From contig CAYZJI010000002.1 of the NCBI GenBank assembly GCA_964479045.1, positions 51,660-115,659 on the forward strand: DNA of 64,000 bases, read 5' to 3'. Shown one piece after another: positions 20,648-52,215 of the stretch. Made by a program: the position numbers and the translations under genes. This DNA is from an uncultured Enterobacteriaceae bacterium (GTDB lineage Bacteria > Pseudomonadota > Gammaproteobacteria > Eutrophobiales > Eutrophobiaceae). Within the stretch, counting starts at the first letter, position 1. Every line of letters begins with the position of its first letter. The notes under the pieces were generated by a model. It saw only the letters and a program-made list of their open reading frames with translations. It had not been told where the DNA came from and ran no database searches.

Positions 20648-21916
20648 ATGGCGCCTTCCCAGACGTACAAACAGATTTCCATTCTGGCTTCCAGTACCTT
20701 TGCCTTCACCATTTGTTTTGCGGTATGGGTCATGTTCTCGATCATCGGCATTCCCATACGCGACACTCTCAATCTCAATGAAACCCAGTTCGGGTTACTG
20801 GCGGCAACACCGATCCTGACCGGCTCGCTGATCCGCCTGCCTATCGGTATCTGGACTGATCGACATGGTGGACGGATCGTATTTTTTCTGTTGATGCTCT
20901 CAACCATTGTTCCGATCTGGTTGATTTCCCGTGCCACGGAGTACTGGCACTTTCTGGTGCTGGGTCTGTTTGTCGGAGTCGCGGGCGGGGCATTTTCCGT
21001 CGGCATCGCCTATGTGGCACGCTGGTTCAGCCGTCCCCGCCAGGGTTTTGCCATGGGTATTTTCGGCGCCGGTAATGCCGGTGCGGCACTGACCAAATTT
21101 GTCGCGCCGACAATCGTGGTGGTATATGGCTGGCAGATGGTGCCTCGAGTGTATGCCATTGCCATGCTGGTCACTGCAATTCTGTTCTGGATGTTCACCT
21201 ATACCGACAAGAGTCATCAGGTTGGTCAGTCAGTCACACTGCGCCAGCAACTCAGCGCCCTGAAGGATCCGAACGTGTGGAAACTCTGCCAGTTTTATTC
21301 GATCGTATTTGGTGGTTATGTGGCCCTGTCTCTGTGGTTGACCAAGTACTACATCAATGAATACGGCTTCGGCATCCAGACGGCGGCATTGATCGCATCC
21401 ATCTTCGTTTTGCCTTCCGGCGTGATTCGCGCTGCCGGTGGCTGGATTTCTGATCGCTATGGCGCGCATCCGGTGACGTGGTGGGTGCTGCTGGTGTCAT
21501 GGGTGTGCCTGTTCTTTATGTCCTATCCGCAGACCGAAATGACCATCCAGACGATCAATGGGCCACTGACCTTCAGCATCGGCTTGAATGCGTGGATGTT
21601 CACGGCTTTACTTTTTGTTGTCGGCATTGCCTGGGGCTTCGGCAAGGCTTCGGTGTTCAAATACATCTCGGATGCGTACCCGGACAATATCGGAGTGATT
21701 TCCGGCATCGTCGGTCTGGCCGGTGGCATGGGTGGTTTCCTGCTACCCATCATGTTTGGCGCACTGGTCGACTTCACCGGTGTACGCTCCAGTATTTTCA
21801 TGTTGCTCTGGGGCGTGACGCTGGTGTCATTGATCTGGATGTACTGGACGGAAATTGTGCCTGCGCGCAGCGGACGCGGGACCGGTGCGGCGCCATTGGC
21901 CGCACAGCACGCCTGA
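20648..21916 (+). CDS. narK1: Nitrate/nitrite transporter, MFS NarK family
   Basis: 12-TM MFS with the G-x3-D-R-x-G-x-R motif (GIWTDRHGGR). First gene of narK1K2GHJI. AAGAGG Shine-Dalgarno. Confidence 0.8.
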   Translation: MAPSQTYKQISILASSTFAFTICFAVWVMFSIIGIPIRDTLNLNETQFGLLAATPILTGSLIRLPIGIWTDRHGGRIVFFLLMLSTIVPIWLISRATEYWHFLVLGLFVGVAGGAFSVGIAYVARWFSRPRQGFAMGIFGAGNAGAALTKFVAPTIVVVYGWQMVPRVYAIAMLVTAILFWMFTYTDKSHQVGQSVTLRQQLSALKDPNVWKLCQFYSIVFGGYVALSLWLTKYYINEYGFGIQTAALIASIFVLPSGVIRAAGGWISDRYGAHPVTWWVLLVSWVCLFFMSYPQTEMTIQTINGPLTFSIGLNAWMFTALLFVVGIAWGFGKASVFKYISDAYPDNIGVISGIVGLAGGMGGFLLPIMFGALVDFTGVRSSIFMLLWGVTLVSLIWMYWTEIVPARSGRGTGAAPLAAQHA

Positions 21917-21947
21917 TCATTACTAAAGTTCAAGAAGGAGCTGAAAG

Positions 21948-23366
21948 ATGAGCGTACAAATGGTTTCAGACAAACCCAAACTGGGAAGCGTGTTACGCAT
22001 CTGGACGCCGGAAGACAAGGCGTTCTGGGAACATCAGGGCAAGGCCATCGCCAACCTCAATCTCTGGATCTCCGTTCCCTGCCTGTTTCTTGCCTTTGCC
22101 GTATGGCAGTTGTGGAGTGTGGTTGCGGTCAATCTGAATACACTCGGTTTCACCTTCACACCCAATCAGCTGTTCTGGCTGGCCGCCGCACCGGCACTTT
22201 CCGGTGCAACCTTGCGGATTTTCTATTCATTCATGGTGCCCATCTTCGGCGGGCGTGAATGGACAGCCATCTCGACAGCCTCACTGCTGATACCCACGAT
22301 TGGTATCGGTATTGCGATACAGGATCTGTCGACCAGTTACTCCACATTTCTGATATTGGCATTGTTGTGTGGCTTCGGCGGTGGAAATTTTTCATCCTCC
22401 ATGGCCAACATCAATTTCTTTTTCCCCAAGGAACGCAAGGGATCGGCACTCGGTGTGAATGCCGGGCTTGGCAACCTTGGTGTATCTTCCGTACAGTTTC
22501 TGGCACCGCTGGTGATTGCGGCGGGTGTGTATGGTCCACTGGCTGGACCACCACAAACTATCATCAATCAAGCCGGACAGACTGTGAACATCTGGGCACA
22601 GAATGCCGCCTTTGTGTGGGTGCCTTTCATTATTATTGCCAGTCTGGCGGCATGGATAGGCATGAATGATATTGCCGATGCCAAAGCATCGTTCCGTGAT
22701 CAGGCGGTGATCTTCAAACGCAAGCACAACTGGATTATGTGCTGGCTCTATCTCGGGACCTTCGGTTCGTTCATCGGCTACTCCGCAGGTTTCCCTTTAC
22801 TCATCAAGTCACAATTTCCCGGCGTGAACGCATTGCAGTATGCGTGGATGGGCCCGCTGATTGGCGCAGTGATACGTCCATTTGGCGGGTGGTTGGCGGA
22901 CAAGCTGGGCGGAGCCATTGTGACCTTCTGGAATTTTATTGTGATGGCACTGGCAGTAGGTGGGGTGCTGTATTTCCTGCCGTCCGGTCCTTCGGGCGGA
23001 AGTTTTGCCGGATTCTTCCTGTGTTTTATGGTGTTGTTTCTCACGACGGGCATCGGCAATGGCTCAACCTTCCGCATGATCCCGGTGATCTTCATGACCG
23101 ACAGGCAACGTGCTGCTGCAGGCAAGGGCAAGGAAGCAGCAGAACAGGCGGTGAAAGAAGCCAACAAGGAAGCCGCCGCAGTCCTTGGTTTTTCGGGGGC
23201 CATTGGCGCCTACGGCGGATTTTTTATTCCAAAAAGTTATGGCACTTCGATCAGCTTGATGGGCGGCCCTGAAGGTGCGCTGTATTTATTCATTGTGTTT
23301 TATCTAAGCTGCATTTGCATTACATGGTGGTATTACGCTCGCAGGAATGCCGAAATGCCGTGTTAA
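21948..23366 (+). CDS. narK2: Nitrate/nitrite antiporter, MFS NarK family
   Basis: 472-aa MFS immediately upstream of narG. Confidence 0.8.
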   Translation: MSVQMVSDKPKLGSVLRIWTPEDKAFWEHQGKAIANLNLWISVPCLFLAFAVWQLWSVVAVNLNTLGFTFTPNQLFWLAAAPALSGATLRIFYSFMVPIFGGREWTAISTASLLIPTIGIGIAIQDLSTSYSTFLILALLCGFGGGNFSSSMANINFFFPKERKGSALGVNAGLGNLGVSSVQFLAPLVIAAGVYGPLAGPPQTIINQAGQTVNIWAQNAAFVWVPFIIIASLAAWIGMNDIADAKASFRDQAVIFKRKHNWIMCWLYLGTFGSFIGYSAGFPLLIKSQFPGVNALQYAWMGPLIGAVIRPFGGWLADKLGGAIVTFWNFIVMALAVGGVLYFLPSGPSGGSFAGFFLCFMVLFLTTGIGNGSTFRMIPVIFMTDRQRAAAGKGKEAAEQAVKEANKEAAAVLGFSGAIGAYGGFFIPKSYGTSISLMGGPEGALYLFIVFYLSCICITWWYYARRNAEMPC

Positions 23367-23379
23367 TGAGGTTACGATC

Positions 23380-26300
23380 ATGAGCCACTTTCTCGACAGG
23401 TTGAAGTTCTTCACACAGGAACGGGAATCGTTTGCCGAGGGACACGGCATGGTCACTCACGAAGACCGGTCCTGGGAAGAGGGCTACCGCAAACGCTGGC
23501 AGCATGACAAGATTGTTCGATCCACGCATGGCGTAAACTGCACCGGTTCATGCAGCTGGAAGATTTATGTCAAGGGCGGAATCGTGACTTGGGAAACACA
23601 ACAGACTGATTATCCCCGCACGCGTCCCGATATGCCCAATCACGAACCGCGGGGTTGTTCGCGAGGCGCATCTTATAGCTGGTATCTCTACAGTGCCAAC
23701 CGCGTGAAATATCCAATGGTGCGCGGACGTCTGGTCCGTGCGTGGCGTGAAGCACGCAAAACCATGAATCCGGTTGACGCCTGGACTTTGATTGTTGAAG
23801 ACGACAAAAAACGGAGAGCGTATCAGACCACCCGCGGCATGGGTGGATTCATCCGTTCCAACTGGGAAGAGGTCAATGAGATCATCGCAGCCGCGAATGT
23901 ATATACCATAAAAAAATACGGCCCGGATCGCATCATCGGGTTCTCACCGATTCCGGCCATGTCGATGGTGTCCTATGCTGCGGGCAGCCGTTATTTATCA
24001 TTGATTGGCGGTGTGTGCATGAGTTTCTATGACTGGTATTGCGATCTTCCGCCTTCCAGTCCGCAGGTGTGGGGCGAACAAACTGATGTGCCGGAATCTG
24101 CAGACTGGTACAACTCCACCTTCATCATGGCATGGGGTTCGAATGTGCCGCAAACGCGCACACCTGATGCACACTTCTTCACCGAGGTTCGTTACAAAGG
24201 CGCAAAAACCGTTGCTGTGACGCCTGATTATTCCGAAGTCGCCAAATTGTGTGATCTGTGGTTGCACCCGAAACAGGGCACGGATGCGGCGATGGCCATG
24301 GCGATGGGGCATGTGATTCTCAGGGAATTTCATCTGGAAAAACCCTCGTCCTATTTCAGTGACTATGTACGCCGTTACAGTGACATGCCGATGCTGGTGA
24401 AACTGGTGAAACGTGGTGATCGCTATGTGCCGGATCGTTTCATCCGTGCCAGTGATTTTTCCGATCAACTGTCACAATCCAACAAACCGGACTGGAAGAC
24501 TGTCGGAATTGATGAAACTACCGGTAATGTAATCGTGCCGAATGGTTCGATAGGGTTCCGCTGGGGCCAGACTGACGGCAAGTGGAACCTGGAATCCAGA
24601 AATGCAAACTCGGGCGCCGAAACTAAACTTGCATTGTCATTGATCGACCGGCGAGATGCAGTGATAACAGTGGCCTTCCCGTATTTTGGCGGGGTGGAGA
24701 ATGAACGCTTCCAGAATAACGATCAGGGTGCGAACGTTATGTTGCGTAATGTGCCGGTCAAAAAGCTCATTCTGGCAGAGGGTGAAACCTGTGTTGCGAC
24801 AGTATTTGATTTGCTGGTGGCAAATTATGGTATTGATCGCGGCCTGGGTGGCGGCAATGTTGCTAAATCCTATGATCAGGACGTTCCCTATACGCCAAAG
24901 TGGCAGGAAAAAATCACTGGCGTGAAGGCAGCTGATGTGATCGCTGTGGCCCGCCAGTTTGCGGACAACGCCGACAAGACTGAAGGTAAATCCATGGTCA
25001 TCATCGGTGCAGCCATGAACCACTGGTATCACAGTGACATGAATTATCGCGGCATCATCAATATGTTGATTATGTGCGGCTGTGTGGGCAAATCCGGCGG
25101 TGGCTGGGCGCATTATGTCGGCCAGGAAAAACTCCGGCCGCAAACCGGCTGGACCGCGCTGGCATTTGCACTGGATTGGCACCGTCCGCCCCGGCAGATG
25201 AACTCTACGTCATTCTTTTATGCGCACACGGATCAATGGCGTTATGAAAAACTGTCTGTCAGGGAGATTCTCTCTCCGCTGGCTGACCCCAAGGAATTTA
25301 CCGGCAGTCTGATTGATTTCAATGTGCGGGCGGAGCGCATGGGCTGGTTGCCCAGTGCGCCCCAGTTGCAGATCAACCCGTTGCAGGTATGCCGTGATGC
25401 GGCTGCCGCAGGAATTGATCCCAAAGAGTATGCGGTGAAGGCCTTGAAGGCAGGCAGGTTACACATGTCTTGTGAAGACCCGGACCATCCGGACAACTTC
25501 CCGCGTAATATGTTTGTGTGGCGCTCCAACCTTTTGGGTTCGAGTGGCAAGGGCCATGAATATTTTCTGAAACACCTGCTGGGGACGAGTCATGGGGTAC
25601 AGGGCAAGGACCTTGGCAGTCTGGGCGGTGAAAAACCGGAAGAGGTGAAATGGCATGAAGAGGCGCCCATCGGCAAACTGGATTTGCTGGTGACACTGGA
25701 TTTCCGCATGTCGACGACTTGTCTCTATTCCGACATCGTGTTGCCGACCGCGACCTGGTATGAAAAAAATGATCTCAATACCTCGGACATGCATCCGTTT
25801 ATTCACCCGTTATCAGCGGCCGTCGATCCGGTATGGGAATCACGCAGTGACTGGGAAATCTACAAGGGCATTGCGAAAAAGTTTTCCGAAGTGGCAAGAG
25901 GCCATCTGGGTATGGAAAAAGAGCTGGTACTGACACCGGTCATGCACGACACACCGGCCGAGCTTGCACAATCCACCTCGGTGCAGCAGTGGAAGCGAGG
26001 TGAATGTGATCTGGTCCCCGGTCAGACTGCACCCCAGGTGACGGTGATCGAACGCGACTATCCCAACACGTACAAAAAATTTACGGCATTGGGACCCTTG
26101 ATGTCCAAAGTGGGTAATGGCGGCAAGGGCATCGCGTGGAATACCGAGCATGAAGTCGAAGCACTGCGTACACTGAACTATCCGGTGACGGAACCCGGGA
26201 TCACTCAAGGCATGCCGCGCATCGAGTCCGATATCGATGCCTGTGAAGTCGTGTTGATGCTGGCGCCGGAGACCAACGGCGAAGTTGCCGTCAAGGCCTG

Positions 26301-27129
26301 GGAAGCATTATCAAAAATTACCGGACGTGAACACAAGCACCTCGCATTGGCAAAAGAGGATGAAAAAATCCGTTTCCGCGACATACAGGCACAACCGAGA
26401 AAAATCATTTCGAGTCCCACCTGGAGCGGGATCGAGTCTGAACATGTCAGTTACAACTCCGGCTATACCAATGTGCATGAACTGATCCCGTGGCGTACCC
26501 TGACCGGCCGCCAGCAGTTTTACCAGGATCACAAATGGATGCTCGGGTTTGGTGAAGGGCTATGTATTTACAAACCACCGGTGGATCTGAAAACCATTCA
26601 TCCCATGGAAGGCATCAAGCCGAACGGCAATCGGGAAGTGGTGCTGAATTTCATCACACCGCATCAGAAATGGGGCATCCATTCCACCTATACGGACAAT
26701 CTCCTGATGCTGACCCTGTCACGTGGCGGGCCGATTGTCTGGTTGTCCGAAGTGGATGCACAACGCGCAGGCATTGAGGACAACGACTGGATTGAACTGT
26801 TTAATGTAAACGGGGCGATTACGGCACGTGCCGTGGTCTCACAACGTGTGAATGAAGGCCTGTGCCTGATGTATCACGCGCAGGAAAAAATTGTGAATGT
26901 GCCCGGCTCCGAACTTACCGGGTTGCGTGGTGGCATTCATAATTCCGTCACTCGCACTGTCGTCAAACCCACGCACATGATCGGCGGTTATGCGCAACTG
27001 AGTTACGGATTTAACTATTATGGCACCATCGGTACCAACCGCGATGAGTTTGTCATCGTCCGGAAAATGAAAACGGTCGACTGGCTGGATCAACCGGCTG
27101 AATCGGCCGCACAAGGAGAACCGCGATGA
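23380..27129 (+). CDS. narG: Respiratory nitrate reductase alpha subunit
   Basis: Start moved to MSHFLDRLKFFTQERESFAEGHG, which matches the NarG N-terminus (MSKFLDRFRYF...). It has a GAGG Shine-Dalgarno. Contains the HGVNCTGSCSW Fe-S motif. Confidence 0.95.
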   Translation: MSHFLDRLKFFTQERESFAEGHGMVTHEDRSWEEGYRKRWQHDKIVRSTHGVNCTGSCSWKIYVKGGIVTWETQQTDYPRTRPDMPNHEPRGCSRGASYSWYLYSANRVKYPMVRGRLVRAWREARKTMNPVDAWTLIVEDDKKRRAYQTTRGMGGFIRSNWEEVNEIIAAANVYTIKKYGPDRIIGFSPIPAMSMVSYAAGSRYLSLIGGVCMSFYDWYCDLPPSSPQVWGEQTDVPESADWYNSTFIMAWGSNVPQTRTPDAHFFTEVRYKGAKTVAVTPDYSEVAKLCDLWLHPKQGTDAAMAMAMGHVILREFHLEKPSSYFSDYVRRYSDMPMLVKLVKRGDRYVPDRFIRASDFSDQLSQSNKPDWKTVGIDETTGNVIVPNGSIGFRWGQTDGKWNLESRNANSGAETKLALSLIDRRDAVITVAFPYFGGVENERFQNNDQGANVMLRNVPVKKLILAEGETCVATVFDLLVANYGIDRGLGGGNVAKSYDQDVPYTPKWQEKITGVKAADVIAVARQFADNADKTEGKSMVIIGAAMNHWYHSDMNYRGIINMLIMCGCVGKSGGGWAHYVGQEKLRPQTGWTALAFALDWHRPPRQMNSTSFFYAHTDQWRYEKLSVREILSPLADPKEFTGSLIDFNVRAERMGWLPSAPQLQINPLQVCRDAAAAGIDPKEYAVKALKAGRLHMSCEDPDHPDNFPRNMFVWRSNLLGSSGKGHEYFLKHLLGTSHGVQGKDLGSLGGEKPEEVKWHEEAPIGKLDLLVTLDFRMSTTCLYSDIVLPTATWYEKNDLNTSDMHPFIHPLSAAVDPVWESRSDWEIYKGIAKKFSEVARGHLGMEKELVLTPVMHDTPAELAQSTSVQQWKRGECDLVPGQTAPQVTVIERDYPNTYKKFTALGPLMSKVGNGGKGIAWNTEHEVEALRTLNYPVTEPGITQGMPRIESDIDACEVVLMLAPETNGEVAVKAWEALSKITGREHKHLALAKEDEKIRFRDIQAQPRKIISSPTWSGIESEHVSYNSGYTNVHELIPWRTLTGRQQFYQDHKWMLGFGEGLCIYKPPVDLKTIHPMEGIKPNGNREVVLNFITPHQKWGIHSTYTDNLLMLTLSRGGPIVWLSEVDAQRAGIEDNDWIELFNVNGAITARAVVSQRVNEGLCLMYHAQEKIVNVPGSELTGLRGGIHNSVTRTVVKPTHMIGGYAQLSYGFNYYGTIGTNRDEFVIVRKMKTVDWLDQPAESAAQGEPR

Positions 27130-28649
27130 AAATCCGTGCCCAGATTGGAATGGTCCTGAATCTCGACAAATGTATCGGGTGTCATACCTGTTCCGTGACA
27201 TGTAAAAACGTATGGACGTCACGCGAAGGTATGGAGTACGCATGGTTCAATAATGTTGAAACCAAGCCGGGCATCGGTTATCCGAAGGAGTGGGAAAACC
27301 AGGACAAATGGAATGGCGGCTGGGTGCGCAAACAAAATGGAAAAATCGAGCCGAAGCAGGGCGGCAAGCTGGCTGTCCTCATGAAGATCTTTGCCAACCC
27401 GAATCTGCCACAGATTGATGATTATTACGAACCTTTCACATTTGACTATCAGCACCTGCATACGGCGCCAGAAATGAAAGCGGCACCGGTGGCCCGGCCA
27501 CGTTCGCTGATTTCCGGAGAACGCATGGAAAAAATCGAATGGGGCCCGAACTGGGAAGAAATTCTCGGCGGTGAATTTTCCAAACGCTCAAAAGATGCAA
27601 ATTTCGAGGATGTGCAGAAGGACATCTACGGACAGTTTGAAAATACCTTCATGATGTATCTGCCACGTTTATGTGAGCATTGTCTGAATCCCACCTGTGT
27701 GGCTTCCTGTCCGTCCGGGTCAATCTATAAACGCGAAGAAGACGGTATTGTGTTGATCGATCAGGACAAGTGCCGCGGCTGGCGCATGTGTGTGTCCGGC
27801 TGTCCCTACAAGAAAATCTATTACAACTGGTCGACCGGCAAGGCGGAAAAATGCATATTCTGTTATCCGCGCATTGAAGCCGGGCAACCCACAGTGTGTT
27901 CTGAAACCTGTGTGGGACGCATCCGCTATCTTGGCGTATTGCTTTATGACGCCGATCGCATCGAACAGGCTGCAAGTGTTGCCAATGACAAGGATTTGTA
28001 CAAGGCGCAACTGGGTGTGTTTCTCAATCCGGACAATCCGGTGGTGATTGAACAGGCGCGCAAGGACGGAGTGCCGGAATCATGGCTGACGGCAGCAAAA
28101 GCATCCCCGGTTTACAAAATGGTGATGGAGTGGAAAGTGGCACTGCCACTGCATCCGGAATACCGCACCTTGCCGATGGTCTGGTATGTGCCGCCCTTGT
28201 CACCTATCACAGCGGCCTCGAACTCCGGTCAGGTCAGTGCCTTCGGTCAATTACCGGACGTGCGCAGTCTGCGTATACCGCTCAAGTATCTCGCCAATCT
28301 GTTGACCGCCGGTGATGAAGAACCGGTGGCTGCAGCACTGGAGCGCATGCTGGCCATGCGCGCCTATATGCGTGATCGGCATGTTGAAAAGAAAGAAAAC
28401 AGCGCAGTGCTCGAACAGGTTGGCATGAGTGTGCAGGAAATCGAAGAAATGTATCGTTATATGGCGATTGCCAATTATGAGGATCGTTTTGTTATCCCGA
28501 CAGCCCACCGTGAATATGCTGAGAATGCCTTTGATCTGCGCGGCGGCTGCGGGTTCTCGTTTGGTAATGGCTGTTCCGATGGCATCTCCAGCCCCGGACT
28601 GTTCGGCGGCAAAAAGAAAAAAGTAATTCCCATCAAGGCGGCAAGCTGA
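27126..28649 (+). CDS. narH: Respiratory nitrate reductase beta subunit (Fe-S)
   Basis: MKIRAQIGMVLNLDKCIGCHTCSVTCKNVWTSREG is near-identical to the E. coli NarH N-terminus. ATGA overlap with narG. Confidence 0.95.
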   Translation: MKIRAQIGMVLNLDKCIGCHTCSVTCKNVWTSREGMEYAWFNNVETKPGIGYPKEWENQDKWNGGWVRKQNGKIEPKQGGKLAVLMKIFANPNLPQIDDYYEPFTFDYQHLHTAPEMKAAPVARPRSLISGERMEKIEWGPNWEEILGGEFSKRSKDANFEDVQKDIYGQFENTFMMYLPRLCEHCLNPTCVASCPSGSIYKREEDGIVLIDQDKCRGWRMCVSGCPYKKIYYNWSTGKAEKCIFCYPRIEAGQPTVCSETCVGRIRYLGVLLYDADRIEQAASVANDKDLYKAQLGVFLNPDNPVVIEQARKDGVPESWLTAAKASPVYKMVMEWKVALPLHPEYRTLPMVWYVPPLSPITAASNSGQVSAFGQLPDVRSLRIPLKYLANLLTAGDEEPVAAALERMLAMRAYMRDRHVEKKENSAVLEQVGMSVQEIEEMYRYMAIANYEDRFVIPTAHREYAENAFDLRGGCGFSFGNGCSDGISSPGLFGGKKKKVIPIKAAS

Positions 28650-28654
28650 GGAAG

Positions 28655-29335
28655 ATGCAAATGAAAATATTAAAAGGACTGGGTGCGCTTCTCACCTATC
28701 CAGAAGAGGATTTGATTACCGCATTGCCGGACCTTGCAGAATTGATTGCCAGTGAAAAATTATTGTCACAGACCGATAAACAGGCATTGAACGGCTTGCT
28801 CTCACAACTGCAACATACGGACCTGCTGGAACTGCAGGAGCACTATGTAGAGTTGTTTGATCGTGGCCGCGCAACTTCATTGAACCTGTTCGAACACGTG
28901 CATGGCGAATCCCGTGATCGCGGTCAGGCCATGGTGGATTTGAACCGCATTTATGCCCAGGCCGGCCTTACACTGTCCAGTAATGAATTACCGGATTATC
29001 TGCCGGCTGTCCTCGAATACCTGTCCCTGCGCCCACGGGCCGAAGTCCTGGACATGCTGGGTGATTGTGCCCATATACTGCGCGCCCTCGGAGAACGTCT
29101 GCGTGATCGGGATAGCCGCTATAGCGCTATATTCTCTGCGTTATTGACAGTTACCGGTGAGGAAGGCCTGGGTGCAAAGGATACAACTGCAACAGATCAT
29201 GAAAAAAGTCTGGATGAGGAATGGGCCGATGAACCGGTGATCTTCGGACCGGGTGCTGCACAGGGCTGCGGCAAACAGGCGCAGACATCCGTGATTAAAT
29301 TCATGCCCGGAAATATTTCGCGAGGTGAGTCATGA
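28655..29335 (+). CDS. narJ: Nitrate reductase molybdenum-cofactor assembly chaperone (delta subunit)
   Basis: 226 aa between narH and narI. NarJ-like sequence. Confidence 0.85.
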   Translation: MQMKILKGLGALLTYPEEDLITALPDLAELIASEKLLSQTDKQALNGLLSQLQHTDLLELQEHYVELFDRGRATSLNLFEHVHGESRDRGQAMVDLNRIYAQAGLTLSSNELPDYLPAVLEYLSLRPRAEVLDMLGDCAHILRALGERLRDRDSRYSAIFSALLTVTGEEGLGAKDTTATDHEKSLDEEWADEPVIFGPGAAQGCGKQAQTSVIKFMPGNISRGES

Positions 29336-30027
29336 ATATAGAAAACTATATCAATGTATTTCTGTTCGGACTCTATCCCTATGTTTGTCTGGCCGTGTTC
29401 CTGTTTGGCAGTCTCTTTCGCTTTGACCGTGAACAATACAGTTGGAAGAGTGATTCTTCACAATTATTGCGTCATGGCCAGTTGCGACTCGGTTCCAATC
29501 TGTTTCATCTGGGTATTTTGCTTATTTTCTTTGGTCATCTGGTGGGCTTGCTCACACCGATGGCAGTCTGGCATACCCTGGGTGTAACGCCAGAGGCCAA
29601 ACAGATTCTGGCGATAGTGGCTGGTGGTATTGCCGGGGTGGCCTGTCTGATTGGATTATTGCTGCTGATACATCGTCGTCTGGCCGATGCACGCATCCGC
29701 GCCACTTCCAAAGGAATGGACATTTTAATTTTGTTCCTGTTGCTGGCCCAGTTATTACTGGGATTATTCAGCATTACCCTGTCTCTGCAACATCTGGATG
29801 GCGGTGAAATGATGAAATTCATGATGTGGGCACAACATATCGTGACATTTCGTGGTGATGCCGCGAGCTTTGTGGCAGATGTACACATCATTTTCAAGCT
29901 GCATCTGCTGCTGGGCATGACGATTTTCCTGATATTCCCGTTTACCCGTCTGGTCCATGTGTGGAGCGGCTTTGCGACACTCGTTTATCTGTTCCGGCCC
30001 TATCAGGTCGTTCGCAGCAAGCATTAA
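29332..30027 (+). CDS. narI: Respiratory nitrate reductase gamma subunit (di-heme cytochrome b)
   Basis: MNIENYINVFLFGLYPYVCLAVFLFGSLFRFDREQYSWKSDSSQLL matches the NarI N-terminus. ATGA overlap with narJ. Confidence 0.9.
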   Translation: MNIENYINVFLFGLYPYVCLAVFLFGSLFRFDREQYSWKSDSSQLLRHGQLRLGSNLFHLGILLIFFGHLVGLLTPMAVWHTLGVTPEAKQILAIVAGGIAGVACLIGLLLLIHRRLADARIRATSKGMDILILFLLLAQLLLGLFSITLSLQHLDGGEMMKFMMWAQHIVTFRGDAASFVADVHIIFKLHLLLGMTIFLIFPFTRLVHVWSGFATLVYLFRPYQVVRSKH

Positions 30028-30038
30028 TTCAGGTTTAA

Positions 30039-30797
30039 ATGATGAAAGCCATCTATGTTAACGGAACAGCCATATCAGCGACCGCGCTGGATCAGGCGGC
30101 ATTGCAATTGGGGACAGAGGCAACACCCGAAGCAGTTGCGCGTGCCGCAGTTGCGCGTGAACTTTTGCACCAGCGTGCTCGTGAAAAAGGTTTGCTGAAC
30201 TTCGGAGGGGATGAAGGTGCCGCAATCGAACGGTTGCTGGATCTGGAAGTCAAAATCCCGGGACGGCCAACCGAAGCCGAGTGTCTGCGCTTTTATGAGG
30301 CCCATCCGGAATCATTCCAGAGCGGGGAACTGGTCTATGCCCGGCATATTTTGTTTGCAGTAACGCCGGGTGCGCCGCTGGAAGCGATCCGCCACAAGGC
30401 AGAACTGACGTTGCATGAATTGCTGCATCATCCGGATCGTTTTGCACAATTTGCCCATGAATATTCCAACTGCCCGTCCGGCGCGCAGCAGGGTAACCTG
30501 GGACAGCTTGCCCGTGGCGAGACAGTCCCCGAATTTGAATCAGCACTGTTTGATGAAAAGCACAACGGGATATTGCCGCGACTGGTCAGGACCCGTTACG
30601 GTTTTCATATTGTCGCGATCGAGCAGCGTATTGCGGGCAGTCAGATACCGTTTTCAGCTGTGCGCGATAAAATAGAAACGTATCTTATGGGCCGGGTGCA
30701 GGAGAAGGCATTATCACAATATGTAAAAGTGCTGGCAGGTCAGGCCGATATTCGCGGTGTGGAAATTGAAGGTGCGGCAACACCACTGGTCCAGTAG
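30039..30797 (+). CDS. PpiC-type (parvulin) peptidyl-prolyl cis-trans isomerase, nar-operon associated
   Basis: Parvulin domain (YARHILF...TRYGFHIV). Same position as the PpiC-type gene that follows narI in Pseudomonas. Confidence 0.7.
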   Translation: MMKAIYVNGTAISATALDQAALQLGTEATPEAVARAAVARELLHQRAREKGLLNFGGDEGAAIERLLDLEVKIPGRPTEAECLRFYEAHPESFQSGELVYARHILFAVTPGAPLEAIRHKAELTLHELLHHPDRFAQFAHEYSNCPSGAQQGNLGQLARGETVPEFESALFDEKHNGILPRLVRTRYGFHIVAIEQRIAGSQIPFSAVRDKIETYLMGRVQEKALSQYVKVLAGQADIRGVEIEGAATPLVQ

Positions 30798-36440: not shown

Positions 36441-37817
36441 ATGACGCTCAGAAAAACCGGATATGTAATGGCCAGCCTGGCCCTGTTGCTGGCGCTGGTT
36501 TCAACTTTCAGCAAGGCGGCATTGCCGCTGGAAGCTGATGGCAAGGAGCTGCCCAGTCTGGCTCCTATGCTGGAAGAGGTAACTCCCGCGGTCGTAAATA
36601 TCGCCACGGAAGGCCGCATCCAGATGCAGCAGAACCCGTTGTTTTCGGATCCGTTTTTCCGGCGGTTTTTTAATGTGCCGGATCAACCCATGGAAAGAAA
36701 AACCCAGAGTCTTGGCTCGGGAGTCATTGTTGATGCCAAGCGCGGTCTGATAATCACCAATAATCATGTGATCGCCAACGCGGTCGAGATTTCTGTGACC
36801 TTGTCTGATGGCCGGCATGTAGATGCGGAGCTGGTCGGGACGGATCCGGAAACCGACGTGGCAGTCATCAAGATACCCGCTAAAAAACTTACCGCGCTGA
36901 CGACATCAGATTCAGATGAATTGAGAGTGGGCGATTTTGTGGTGGCGATTGGTAATCCGTTTGGTCTGGGTCAGACGGTGACCTCCGGCATCGTCAGTGG
37001 CCTGAGCCGCAGTGGTCTGGGTATCGAGGATTATGAAGATTTCATCCAGACCGATGCTTCGATCAACCCCGGTAATTCCGGCGGCGCTCTGGTGAATCTC
37101 AATGGTGAACTGGTCGGGATCAATACGGCCATCTTTTCGCAAACCGGCGGTAATATCGGAATCGGTTTTGCGATTCCCATCAATCTTGCCATCAATATCA
37201 TGGAGCAATTGCTGGAAAACGGTGAAGTGCAGCGGGGTTACCTCGGTGTCTATGCACAGGATCTGAGCCCGGATCTGGCGGAAGCGTTTGGTTTGAAGAA
37301 ACAAAGCGGCGCGGTGATTAACAAGGTGCTTGAAAATTCTCCTGCCGAGAAAGCCGGACTCAGAACCGGTGATATCGTGACGCAGATTGATGGCCGTCCG
37401 GTGCGTAACGCGGCCGATGTCAAAAACCAGATTGGTTTGCGCAAGATAGGTGAGAAAGTTGAATTTGAAATCCTGCGCGATAGCAAAACCAGCACCATTT
37501 CGGTTGAGATTGCGCCGGGAAGGGAAGCGGGTAACGGTCCGAGTGCGGTCAATGAGCGCCTCGAAGGAATGACAGTAGGAGAAATCAAGGAAGATCATCC
37601 CTTGTACGGGAAATTACAGGGTGCACTGGTGCTGGCAGTACAGCGTGGAACCCCAAGCTGGCGTAGCGGCTTGAGGCCTGGTGATGTGATTACCTCGGTG
37701 AATAACCAGCCGGTCAAAAACCTTCAGGAATTTCTGGTGGCCGTGGATAAAAAACAGGATACGCTGCTGCTGCGTATTGTGCGTGGAGAGGCCGCAGCGT
37801 TTGTGGTGATTAAGTAG
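36441..37817 (+). CDS. Periplasmic serine endoprotease, DegP/DegQ/MucD family (trypsin domain + 2 PDZ)
   Basis: Signal peptide. Catalytic triad context TNNHV, DVAVIK, GNSGGAL. Two PDZ-like regions. Confidence 0.85.
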   Translation: MTLRKTGYVMASLALLLALVSTFSKAALPLEADGKELPSLAPMLEEVTPAVVNIATEGRIQMQQNPLFSDPFFRRFFNVPDQPMERKTQSLGSGVIVDAKRGLIITNNHVIANAVEISVTLSDGRHVDAELVGTDPETDVAVIKIPAKKLTALTTSDSDELRVGDFVVAIGNPFGLGQTVTSGIVSGLSRSGLGIEDYEDFIQTDASINPGNSGGALVNLNGELVGINTAIFSQTGGNIGIGFAIPINLAINIMEQLLENGEVQRGYLGVYAQDLSPDLAEAFGLKKQSGAVINKVLENSPAEKAGLRTGDIVTQIDGRPVRNAADVKNQIGLRKIGEKVEFEILRDSKTSTISVEIAPGREAGNGPSAVNERLEGMTVGEIKEDHPLYGKLQGALVLAVQRGTPSWRSGLRPGDVITSVNNQPVKNLQEFLVAVDKKQDTLLLRIVRGEAAAFVVIK

Positions 37818-37870
37818 TTACTGCAAATATACAAATAGAGAGAGTTTATATGCAGGTTATAATTTTTTTG

Positions 37871-37912
37871 GTGAAGCGTGAAGCGTGAAGCGTGAAGCGT
37901 GAAGCGTGAAGC
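37871..37912 (+). repeat. Tandem heptanucleotide repeat (GTGAAGC)x6 in the 5' leader of the slp-like gene
   Basis: Read directly: gtgaagc x6, followed by gtgctATG. A TATAAT -10 hexamer lies at 37858-37863. The slp ATG at 37918 follows 5 nt after the last unit. Confidence 0.9.
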
Positions 37913-37917
37913 GTGCT

Positions 37918-38493
37918 ATGCGGATACTGTCTATCAGTATTGTGTTTCTGTTGGCAGGTTGTGCGAGTCATATCCCTGTGGAGATCCGTGACGATATTAC
38001 AGAAGGCAGTGCAACGATAAATTCAGTGCAATCGGATTTTGAAGCCTATGAAGGACGTCAGGTGCGCTGGGGCGGCACAATTGCTGCGGTAGAAAACAGG
38101 GAAAATGACACCTGGATTGAAGTGGTTGCGCGTGAACTTAATTCCTGGGGAGAGCCGCTGTACTCGGATGTCTCCAGCGGCCGATTCCTGTTCAGGGTTG
38201 ACGGGTTTCTGGATCCGGCCATCTACAAGGTCGATCGGGAAATTACCGTCTATGGCACGATAGAGAGCCGTGTCGTTCGTGAGATTGATGATCATCCATA
38301 CAATTATGTGCTGGTCAGGGCACAATCACATTATCTATGGAATGATTACGAGCAACGCCGTTATGCCTGGCCTTACTATTATCCGTATTATCCTTATTAC
38401 TATCCCTATCATTACGGATTTTATTTTGGCCACCCGTTCAGCTATCACCCGTCATATCATTTCGGATTCCACCATCACTGGCACCACTGGTAA
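37918..38493 (+). CDS. Slp-family outer-membrane lipoprotein with unusual Tyr/Pro/His-rich C-terminal tail
   Basis: Lipobox LLAGC. Slp-like core (VRWGGTIAAV, GFLDP) comparable to E. coli Slp (ARFGGKVINV, GFLDP). C-terminal 45 aa is YYYPYYPYYYPYHYGFYFGHPFSYHPSYHFGFHHHWHHW. The ATG at 37918 is preferred over the track's GTG at 37906, which lies inside the repeat. Confidence 0.65.
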   Translation: MRILSISIVFLLAGCASHIPVEIRDDITEGSATINSVQSDFEAYEGRQVRWGGTIAAVENRENDTWIEVVARELNSWGEPLYSDVSSGRFLFRVDGFLDPAIYKVDREITVYGTIESRVVREIDDHPYNYVLVRAQSHYLWNDYEQRRYAWPYYYPYYPYYYPYHYGFYFGHPFSYHPSYHFGFHHHWHHW

Positions 38494-51606: not shown

Positions 51607-52087
51607 GGACAGGAAAATTATTGAGGACAACTGGCTGTGCCTCAAGGAACTGCCGGCTGAACAGCCATTACCGGAAGGCAAGGTGATCCTGCCCTATGCT
51701 TACTGGCAGGCGAACCGTGAACGGTTGATCGCTGTGAGCAAAAAATATGCGGTTTGCATTAATGGTGATCATGAAACAGATGAAGTGGCGAAAGACCTCG
51801 CCCATTTTGAATTGATTGCCCTGGAATTCCCGGCATTTACGGATGGCCGCTCGTATTCCCATGCGCGGTTGTTACGTGAACGTTATCACTATACAGGTGA
51901 ATTACGTGCGGTTGGTGATGTGTTACGCGATCAGCTGTTTTTCATGTATCGCTGTGGCATCGATTCCTATGAAGTACGTGCAGACAAGAATATTGAAGAT
52001 GCCCTGAAGGCGTTTGATGAATTTACAGTGAAGTACCAGACGGCCGCTGATCAGGCTACGCCCATTTATAAAACCCGGCATGCGTGA
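51593..52087 (+). CDS. DUF934-family protein, cysI-associated
   Basis: 164 aa overlapping the cysI stop. DUF934 genes conventionally follow cysI in Pseudomonas-like genomes. Confidence 0.55.
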   Translation: MRVIKDRKIIEDNWLCLKELPAEQPLPEGKVILPYAYWQANRERLIAVSKKYAVCINGDHETDEVAKDLAHFELIALEFPAFTDGRSYSHARLLRERYHYTGELRAVGDVLRDQLFFMYRCGIDSYEVRADKNIEDALKAFDEFTVKYQTAADQATPIYKTRHA

Positions 52088-52215
52088 AGCGTGAAGTGTA
52101 GATCGTGGCTCGGTGCTCGGGACTCGAATTAGAGGGTTAGAGCAACTTTTCTGGTTTCCTCTATTCTCTCCATCTTCACGAGCCACAAGCCACGAGTACC
52201 AAGCCACGCTTCAAA
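52083..52215. repeat. Long imperfect inverted repeat built from GTGAAGC and (C)GAGCCAC units, between convergent genes
   Basis: Left arm GCGTGAAGCGTGAAGTGTAGATCGTGGCTCGGTGCTCGG. Right arm CACGAGCCACAAGCCACGAGTACCAAGCCACGCTTCAAAC is its approximate reverse complement. Shares GTGAAGC with the slp leader and CTCGGGACTCG with position 47109. Confidence 0.6.

Follow-up and report, generated by a model that had tools for sequence, protein, structure and literature searches.

The question raised by this locus is whether a short tandem repeat directly before the gene of a surface lipoprotein makes that gene phase-variable. The locus lies in a 64,000-nt stretch of DNA from an uncultured gammaproteobacterium (the window; all positions given here are window positions), where a perfect array of the heptanucleotide GTGAAGC almost abuts the start codon of slp, a gene encoding a lipoprotein of the Slp family. 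The original prediction, made from the letters of this stretch, had recognized six perfect GTGAAGC units that fill nearly all of the interval between a -10-like box and the ATG, and Tandem Repeats Finder confirmed this array at 37871-37915 (period 7, 6.4 copies, 100% matches, score 90). The units had been taken as the classic architecture of a phase-variable surface protein, a reading that, as a whole, is partly supported by the present analysis. We consider the chances to be slightly better than even that the array is a young, lineage-specific, slippage-prone microsatellite in the leader of slp, which is either neutral or acts as a weak rheostat of expression. As things stand, it is a correctly observed and probably inconsequential microsatellite before an ordinary gene.

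The locus reads ...GGTTATAATTTTTTTG(GTGAAGC)6GTGCTATG..., with 2 nt between the 3′ end of the array and the ATG (37918). The array is the highest-scoring and the only strong tandem repeat in the 64 kb, and thus the window is not repeat-rich. When a pattern of two consecutive units was searched for with at most one mismatch, six matches were found where 0.02 would be expected by chance, and five of the six lay within the array itself. The uninterrupted 6.4 units exceed the three-unit threshold that has been used for heptamers in H. influenzae (PMC2651432), and the array may be expected to be prone to slippage. A 41-amino-acid open reading frame (ORF) that crosses the array on the minus strand (37846-37971) overlaps the conserved slp start and was not supported as a coding sequence.

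The geometry of the array determines what slippage can and cannot do. Since the array is perfect, the gain or loss of a unit anywhere within it equals a gain or loss at its 5′ end, and the 3′ junction, i.e., the last units, GTGCT and the ATG, is identical whatever the number of units. This fixed junction excludes, by the sequence itself, both a frameshift and an altered spacing between the ribosome-binding site (RBS) and the start codon. At any copy number, the same distances separate the GTG at 37906, the ATG and whatever ribosome-binding sequence the repeat may contain, and each of the three forward frames of the array is closed by TGA, so that there is no read-through. Likewise, no promoter element can be placed 3′ of the array, where just 2 nt remain before the ATG. 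A change in copy number alters only the distance from the -10 hexamer or the transcription start to the ATG, in other words the length of the leader, together with the number of repeated modules. Each module holds one GUG and one GUGA, the latter being complementary to the generic 16S rRNA 3′ tail. Of the changes in spacing that had been predicted to follow from slippage, the one between promoter and start codon therefore stands, while the one between RBS and start codon does not, and the predicted frameshift through the in-repeat GTG is excluded.

In the classic architecture of phase variation, the repeat is located inside an ORF or between promoter elements (PMC12721329). Classical contingency loci, such as the TA repeat of hifA/B, the TAAA repeat of nadA and the intra-ORF tetranucleotides of Haemophilus and Neisseria, likewise combine a slippage-prone repeat with an envelope or surface gene, and there a gained or lost unit puts the coding sequence out of frame or alters how far apart promoter or operator elements stand. 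The repeat in the window, on the other hand, follows the only -10 candidate and precedes the start codon, and thus neither the frameshift nor the promoter-spacing mechanism applies, which leaves the term classic inappropriate for this locus.

The original prediction had proposed to look for heterogeneity in unit number in related strains. In the more distant relatives that were sampled, the repeat is missing altogether. No tandem array was found within 260 nt before the slp start at any of 25 related loci, the syntenic ones included, and 95 kb of DNA from the relatives contained no array of period 7. The leader repeat is hence present in none of the sampled homolog loci, a sample that excludes the leader of E. 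coli slp. The closest relatives conserve the gene order hsp20-degQ-slp-(HAD hydrolase, opposite strand)-rmuC, and in the syntenic ones the intergenic region before slp is similar in length and carries a GAGG Shine-Dalgarno (SD) sequence 5-7 nt before the ATG. Promoters of the E. coli sigma-E type resemble GGAACTT-N16-TCNAA. Strict matches to a sigma-E-like motif, GAAyyT-N14-17-TCTAw, precede slp in four independent lineages, at approximately -60 (locus L120), -55 (L132), -33 (L133) and -54 (L134) relative to the slp start, and near-matches were seen in L127, L128 and L130; the background was 3 hits in 128 kb. The sigma-E regulon as given in PMC2731931 includes YeaY, the E. coli paralog of Slp, an entry that fits the presence of these motifs upstream of several slp relatives. 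Taken together, the motifs suggest that slp is a member of an envelope-stress regulon in this clade, with its promoter rewired in the species of the window. The slp leader in the window contains neither a sigma-E-like motif nor GAGG; the TATAAT, the run of six T and the array stand instead. In this lineage alone among those sampled, the array thus takes the place of the ancestral leader. No second copy of the species was found in the collections searched, in each of which it is present once. Look-ups of the exact Slp protein from either possible start, of the Slp homolog P0001 and of DegQ gave no contig on record, clusters led to a single NCBI contig of 301 kb, and a scan of metagenomes for the slp locus returned only relatives at ≤61% identity.

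Among more distant slp homologs, a promoter-like pair consisting of TTGACA and (G/T)AAAAT or GATAAT ends about 7-12 nt before the start at five loci (L137, L139, L140, L142 and L146). The slp mRNAs of these would be nearly or entirely leaderless.

The placement of the array in the 5′ untranslated region (UTR) of slp depends on where transcription starts. There is one promoter-like match near slp, a sigma-70-like one, compared with a mean of 1.6 in shuffled sequences, and its -10 box is thus a candidate by consensus only. Transcription would then start near G37870/71. The assignment of the array to the 5′ UTR, itself putative, follows from its position 2 nt before the ATG and from the lack of any promoter candidate inside it. 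As no terminator-like site was found on the forward strand between the degQ stop (37817) and the array, the latter could alternatively belong to a degQ-slp transcript. The best pairing of the leader with the anti-SD sequence of the generic 16S 3′ tail was -4.2 kcal/mol, via GUGA only, against a window median of -4.8 kcal/mol. The absence of an SD sequence was considered as an anomaly and rejected, since slp is no outlier: 14 of the 31 other genes in the window pair with the anti-SD sequence as weakly or more weakly.

Elsewhere in the window, one further GTGAAGC doublet was found at 52084-52097 (one mismatch; chance expectation 0.02). This doublet, which precedes no gene, shares bases with a stop codon and makes up the foot of a long hairpin where two convergent genes meet. 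Single copies of the heptamer number 15 compared with about 8.6 expected, which is not a clear enrichment, and none of them stands before a start codon. The hairpin is an imperfect one of approximately 130 nt (52082-52213, arms 52085-52122 and 52176-52213; RNA minimum free energy -54.3 kcal/mol, z = -3.6), has the doublet at the start of its 5′ arm and lies between a DUF934 gene, at the end of a sulfite-reductase operon, and a pyruvate kinase gene. It matched no family in Rfam and could be a bidirectional terminator or an element resembling repetitive extragenic palindromes (REP).

To look beyond the window, genome collections were scanned for (GTGAAGC)x3, which gave at least 119 loci (L001-L119) from many phyla; the genome of the window was not among the matches listed. 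Among the matches listed, the arrays have 3-17 units, and several genomes hold two or three separate loci. Examples of the arrays are those of Chloroflexaceae Prado088 (L006, L040 and L116), Desulfococcaceae HSG8 (L079), Granulosicoccus (L086) and Thiohalomonadaceae (L002 and L068). Some of the listed arrays are part of longer stretches of degenerate heptamers (GTGAGGC, GTGAAAC, GTGATAC, GTAATGC), and arrays with 10-17 units are located at the ends of contigs. Long open frames on the opposite strand cover about half of the listed arrays and would encode heptapeptide repeats of the ASRFTLH type. With respect to starts, 33 arrays are in forward and 54 in reverse orientation, and they are not concentrated just before start codons. 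A common leader function for GTGAAGC arrays is therefore not supported by these matches.

In the reading that we favour, replication slippage would have created the array within the transcribed leader of slp. The gene itself would otherwise be ordinary, its product an OB-fold lipoprotein with a disordered tail typical of its clade, encoded in the conserved envelope-stress neighbourhood hsp20-degQ-slp. The array would be transcribed either as nearly the whole 5′ UTR or as the intercistronic spacer of a degQ-slp transcript, and its last unit would supply the sole, weak anti-SD-complementary sequence (GUGA) before the ATG. Further slippage would alter how long the leader is and how many GUG/GUGA/uORF (upstream ORF) modules it holds, with no on/off switching by frame or RBS, and a change in copy number would be neutral or, at most, act as a weak graded rheostat on Slp expression. 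Several points weigh against this reading. A perfect array without degenerate units could reflect homogenisation by frequent slippage under selection, and the product, a cell-envelope lipoprotein, belongs to the usual gene class of contingency loci. The hmw genes of H. influenzae show that a 7-nt repeat in a 5′ UTR can have a strong regulatory effect, which has been proven there (PMC12721329). Furthermore, the second doublet at 52084-52097 hints that the motif may recur in the genome, and lineage-specific is a coarse term as the nearest sampled relative is just 66-68% identical in Slp. That the array is a functional leader module, either as one of many SD-replacing heptamer sets or as a hypermutable 5′-UTR rheostat or uORF-relay parity switch, appears distinctly improbable to us. 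Either functional form, if true, would extend repeat-based control of expression beyond host-adapted pathogens and would act via leader length and not via frame or promoter spacing.

In H. influenzae hmw1A and hmw2A, the 5′ UTR contains an (ATCTTTC)n repeat, and expression falls in inverse proportion as units are added (PMC12721329; Dawid 1999 via PMC2651432), so that the system is a graded rheostat and not a frameshift switch. The hmw arrays comprise 13-38 units in sequenced strains and lie approximately 70-105 bp upstream of the gene; mechanistically, about 10 repeats pair with a complementary G-rich arm to form a long hairpin, which RNase III cleaves, and no natural allele has fewer than 11 units (PMC12721329). 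If the locus in the window were a true contingency or rheostat locus of this type, unit number would vary frequently and leader length would set the Slp level via mRNA processing, stability or translation, resulting in heritable, reversible heterogeneity in an envelope lipoprotein. In placement, the locus does resemble hmw, since a perfect 7-nt tandem repeat, well over the three-unit threshold, stands upstream of a cell-surface or envelope protein gene, in what would be its transcribed leader, and a change in unit number alters the leader and not the frame. However, the mechanistic features of hmw are missing. The array has six units compared with at least 11, it abuts the ATG, and its host is free-living. 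No complementary GCTTCAC-rich arm was found near it, and the fold of the leader RNA is not unusual (z = -0.82). As the leader RNA also matched no Rfam family, even at E up to 1, both a riboswitch and an hmw-like hairpin were rejected. In addition, there is no other repeat locus in the 64 kb, and the repeat is absent from all examined relatives. We regard an hmw-type rheostat as unlikely, though worth keeping in view: if copy number varies and tunes Slp, this would be a rare 5′-UTR heptamer rheostat outside Haemophilus, in a free-living host and without the hairpin and RNase III mechanism.

The placement of the array directly before the ATG also recalls the TAACTGA heptamer direct repeats of marine Beggiatoaceae, cyanobacteria and Bacteroidetes, of which 2-6 forward copies end about 1 to a few nt before the start (MacGregor 2015, PMC4679880). 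They usually occur without an SD sequence, in 169 sets per genome of approximately 5,330 genes, and their function is unknown (PMC4679880). As a member of such a genome-wide set before starts, the array could give a post-transcriptional regulator a site to bind, or stand in for the SD sequence in binding the ribosome. The architecture fits, with 6.4 forward copies ending 2 nt before the ATG, no canonical SD sequence, the GAGG of the relatives missing, and an environmental gammaproteobacterium as host. Two GTGAAGC sets in 64 kb also approximate the density of 169 sets among 5,330 genes, and several genomes of other phyla have GTGAAGC arrays at two or three loci among the matches listed. On the other hand, the unit differs from TAACTGA. 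The defining trait of the TAACTGA repeats is abundance across a whole genome; in the 64 kb covered here, one leader array and one unrelated-looking doublet that leads no gene are seen. Neither the single copies in the window nor the listed arrays of other genomes favour positions upstream of starts, and weak SD pairing is common in the window anyway. This explanation is therefore quite doubtful in our view, but recurrence of the heptamer before many genes would make it a second, independent instance of the unexplained leader repeats of Beggiatoaceae. A switch by copy-number parity is conceivable as well, though very improbable. Translation from the GUG of any of units 1-4 gives a uORF of five codons, (M)KREA, and its UGA shares bases with the GUG two units further on. 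From the GUG of unit 5, an out-of-frame ORF of 30 codons extends past the slp ATG, and the GUG of unit 6 is in frame. Ribosomes that load at the 5′ end and re-initiate might thus advance in steps of two units and arrive at the in-frame last GUG or at the out-of-frame penultimate GUG, depending on whether the number of units is odd or even, and 7 nt before each GUG stands a GUGA that can pair with the anti-SD tail. Parity would matter only with a relay anchored at the 5′ end, which is speculation from a reading of the sequence. The arrangement is not conserved, the ATG at 37918 is directly reachable by ribosomes, and a GUG at the 5′ end of an mRNA is a poor initiator. Finally, the array or its exact length could be an artefact of assembly, given that there is one assembly only of the organism and that long GTGAAGC arrays elsewhere sit at contig ends. 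This is barely credible for an array of 45 nt, which is shorter than a sequencing read, has unique flanks and intact neighbouring genes, and lies in the interior of a 301-kb contig.

Table 1. Features of the slp locus, in order of position in the window.
Feature	Position	Strand	Basis or remark
degQ/htrA-type protease gene, upstream of slp	36441-37817	+	Pfam; gene order kept in relatives
Sigma-70-like promoter match, TAGAGA-16-nt spacer-TATAAT	37836-37863	+	-10 hexamer 37858-37863; 10 of 12 consensus positions
Six-T run separating -10 hexamer from repeat	37864-37869	+	Direct sequence reading
(GTGAAGC)x6.4 perfect tandem array	37871-37915	+	Six full units 37871-37912, then partial GTG
GTG of last full unit, in frame with ATG	37906-37908	+	Possible alternative start
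slp coding sequence, 191 amino acids and stop codon	37918-38493	+	Pfam, TIGRFAM, homologs
Predicted lipoprotein signal peptide MRILSISIVFLLAG, then lipobox Cys15	37918-37962	+	Lipobox L-A-G-C
Predicted OB-fold-like beta-barrel core, residues ~20-143	37975-38346	+	AlphaFold2 and Foldseek
C-terminal tail, 50 amino acids, Tyr/Pro/His/aromatic-rich	38341-38490	+	76% Y/F/W/H/P, 18% His
In-frame 9-nt tandem repeat TATTATCCG x2.6, encoding YYP units	38377-38399	+	Tandem Repeats Finder

The identification of the gene product as an Slp-type lipoprotein of the outer membrane held up; the family membership is clear and the localisation is predicted. The Pfam family Slp (PF03843) was matched with an E-value of 5e-49 and 166 bits, against a cut-off of 22.5, over profile positions 1-152 of 153, and TIGR00752 with a score of 90.6 against a cut-off of 88.45. 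A search with the protein retrieved 401 homologs, and BLASTP aligned it with E. coli Slp at 34% identity over 139 residues (E-value 1e-22). The lipobox cysteine, C15, is invariant across 75 aligned homologs and M1 is nearly so, and the N-termini of the homologs consist of MR, a hydrophobic stretch and GGC, with signal peptides of 15-21 residues. Because of these N-termini and of the nearly invariant M1, the ATG at 37918 was taken as the conserved start. Initiation at the GTG of the last full unit would add MKRA to the cleaved signal peptide and leave the mature protein unchanged.

The AlphaFold2 model of the protein had a mean predicted local distance difference test (pLDDT) score of 82, with 88-98 in the core. 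A search with this model in Foldseek gave weak matches to OB-fold proteins (SSB, PriB, RPA and the anticodon domains of tRNA synthetases), and no solved structure matching by sequence was found for Slp or its tail. The protein shares with E. coli Slp and YeaY the Pfam and TIGRFAM family, the lipobox cysteine and a C-terminal extension of about 44-50 amino acids with an aromatic/Gly/Pro patch. It differs from E. coli Slp in its genomic context, which is degQ/hsp20 and not the acid-fitness island, and in the composition of the tail, which in E. coli Slp comprises 44 amino acids with 32% Y/F/W/H/P.

The tail had been put forward as foreign to canonical Slp and as of a kind that occurs in metal-binding or self-associating surface proteins. 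The tail sequence originally quoted is correct, although the string comprises 39 residues and not the stated 45. In the AlphaFold2 model, residues 145-191 form a low-confidence coil, with pLDDT values mostly below 65 and below 50 over residues 154-179, and the tail is thus predicted to be disordered. For comparison, we surveyed the 117 homologs that could be anchored on a conserved ...LW motif. A C-terminal extension was present in all 117, with a median length of 42 amino acids (range 29-59) and a median of 67% Y/F/W/H/P. Only the His content of the tail in the window is above average compared with the homolog median of 5.6%, and it is still within the range, which reaches up to 30%. Its presence in all 117 makes the tail a clade trait and no peculiarity of the window gene. 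As a unique metal-binding feature it was rejected, metal binding itself being only putative.

In most relatives the tail is coded by in-frame tandem DNA repeats of 9 or 12 nt, corresponding to YYP and YYPY units (e.g., L120, 2960-2988, and L146, 1956-1997). Such repeats probably drive the variation in tail length, 29-59 amino acids, across the clade. The more general lesson of this locus may lie here, in a conserved, predicted-disordered Tyr/Pro-rich tail of an Slp clade that is encoded by in-frame DNA repeats. The C-termini of the Slp homologs are themselves aromatic (W, Y or F) in 82 of 120 cases; 58 end in W, and the commonest ending is ...YYW. Speculatively, these aromatic ends, next to the gene of the PDZ protease DegQ, recall the C-termini of outer-membrane proteins that are sensed by PDZ proteases.

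With regard to the organism, the window also encodes a respiratory nitrate reductase, a sulfite reductase, a chemoreceptor and cyclic di-GMP enzymes. The best match of its elongation factor EF-G was 79% identical, and the named top hits were metagenome-assembled genomes of the Rifle aquifer, 'Gammaproteobacteria bacterium RIFCSPLOWO2_*_47_*'. By this gene content and these matches, the organism is assigned as a free-living uncultured gammaproteobacterium and not as a host-adapted pathogen with a small genome. The gene for the alpha subunit of the respiratory nitrate reductase is located at 23347-27129, within a run of ORFs on the same strand (20648-30797) that may be a nar cluster, of which the Pfam scan covered the alpha subunit only. 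This context would be that of a free-living facultative anaerobe.

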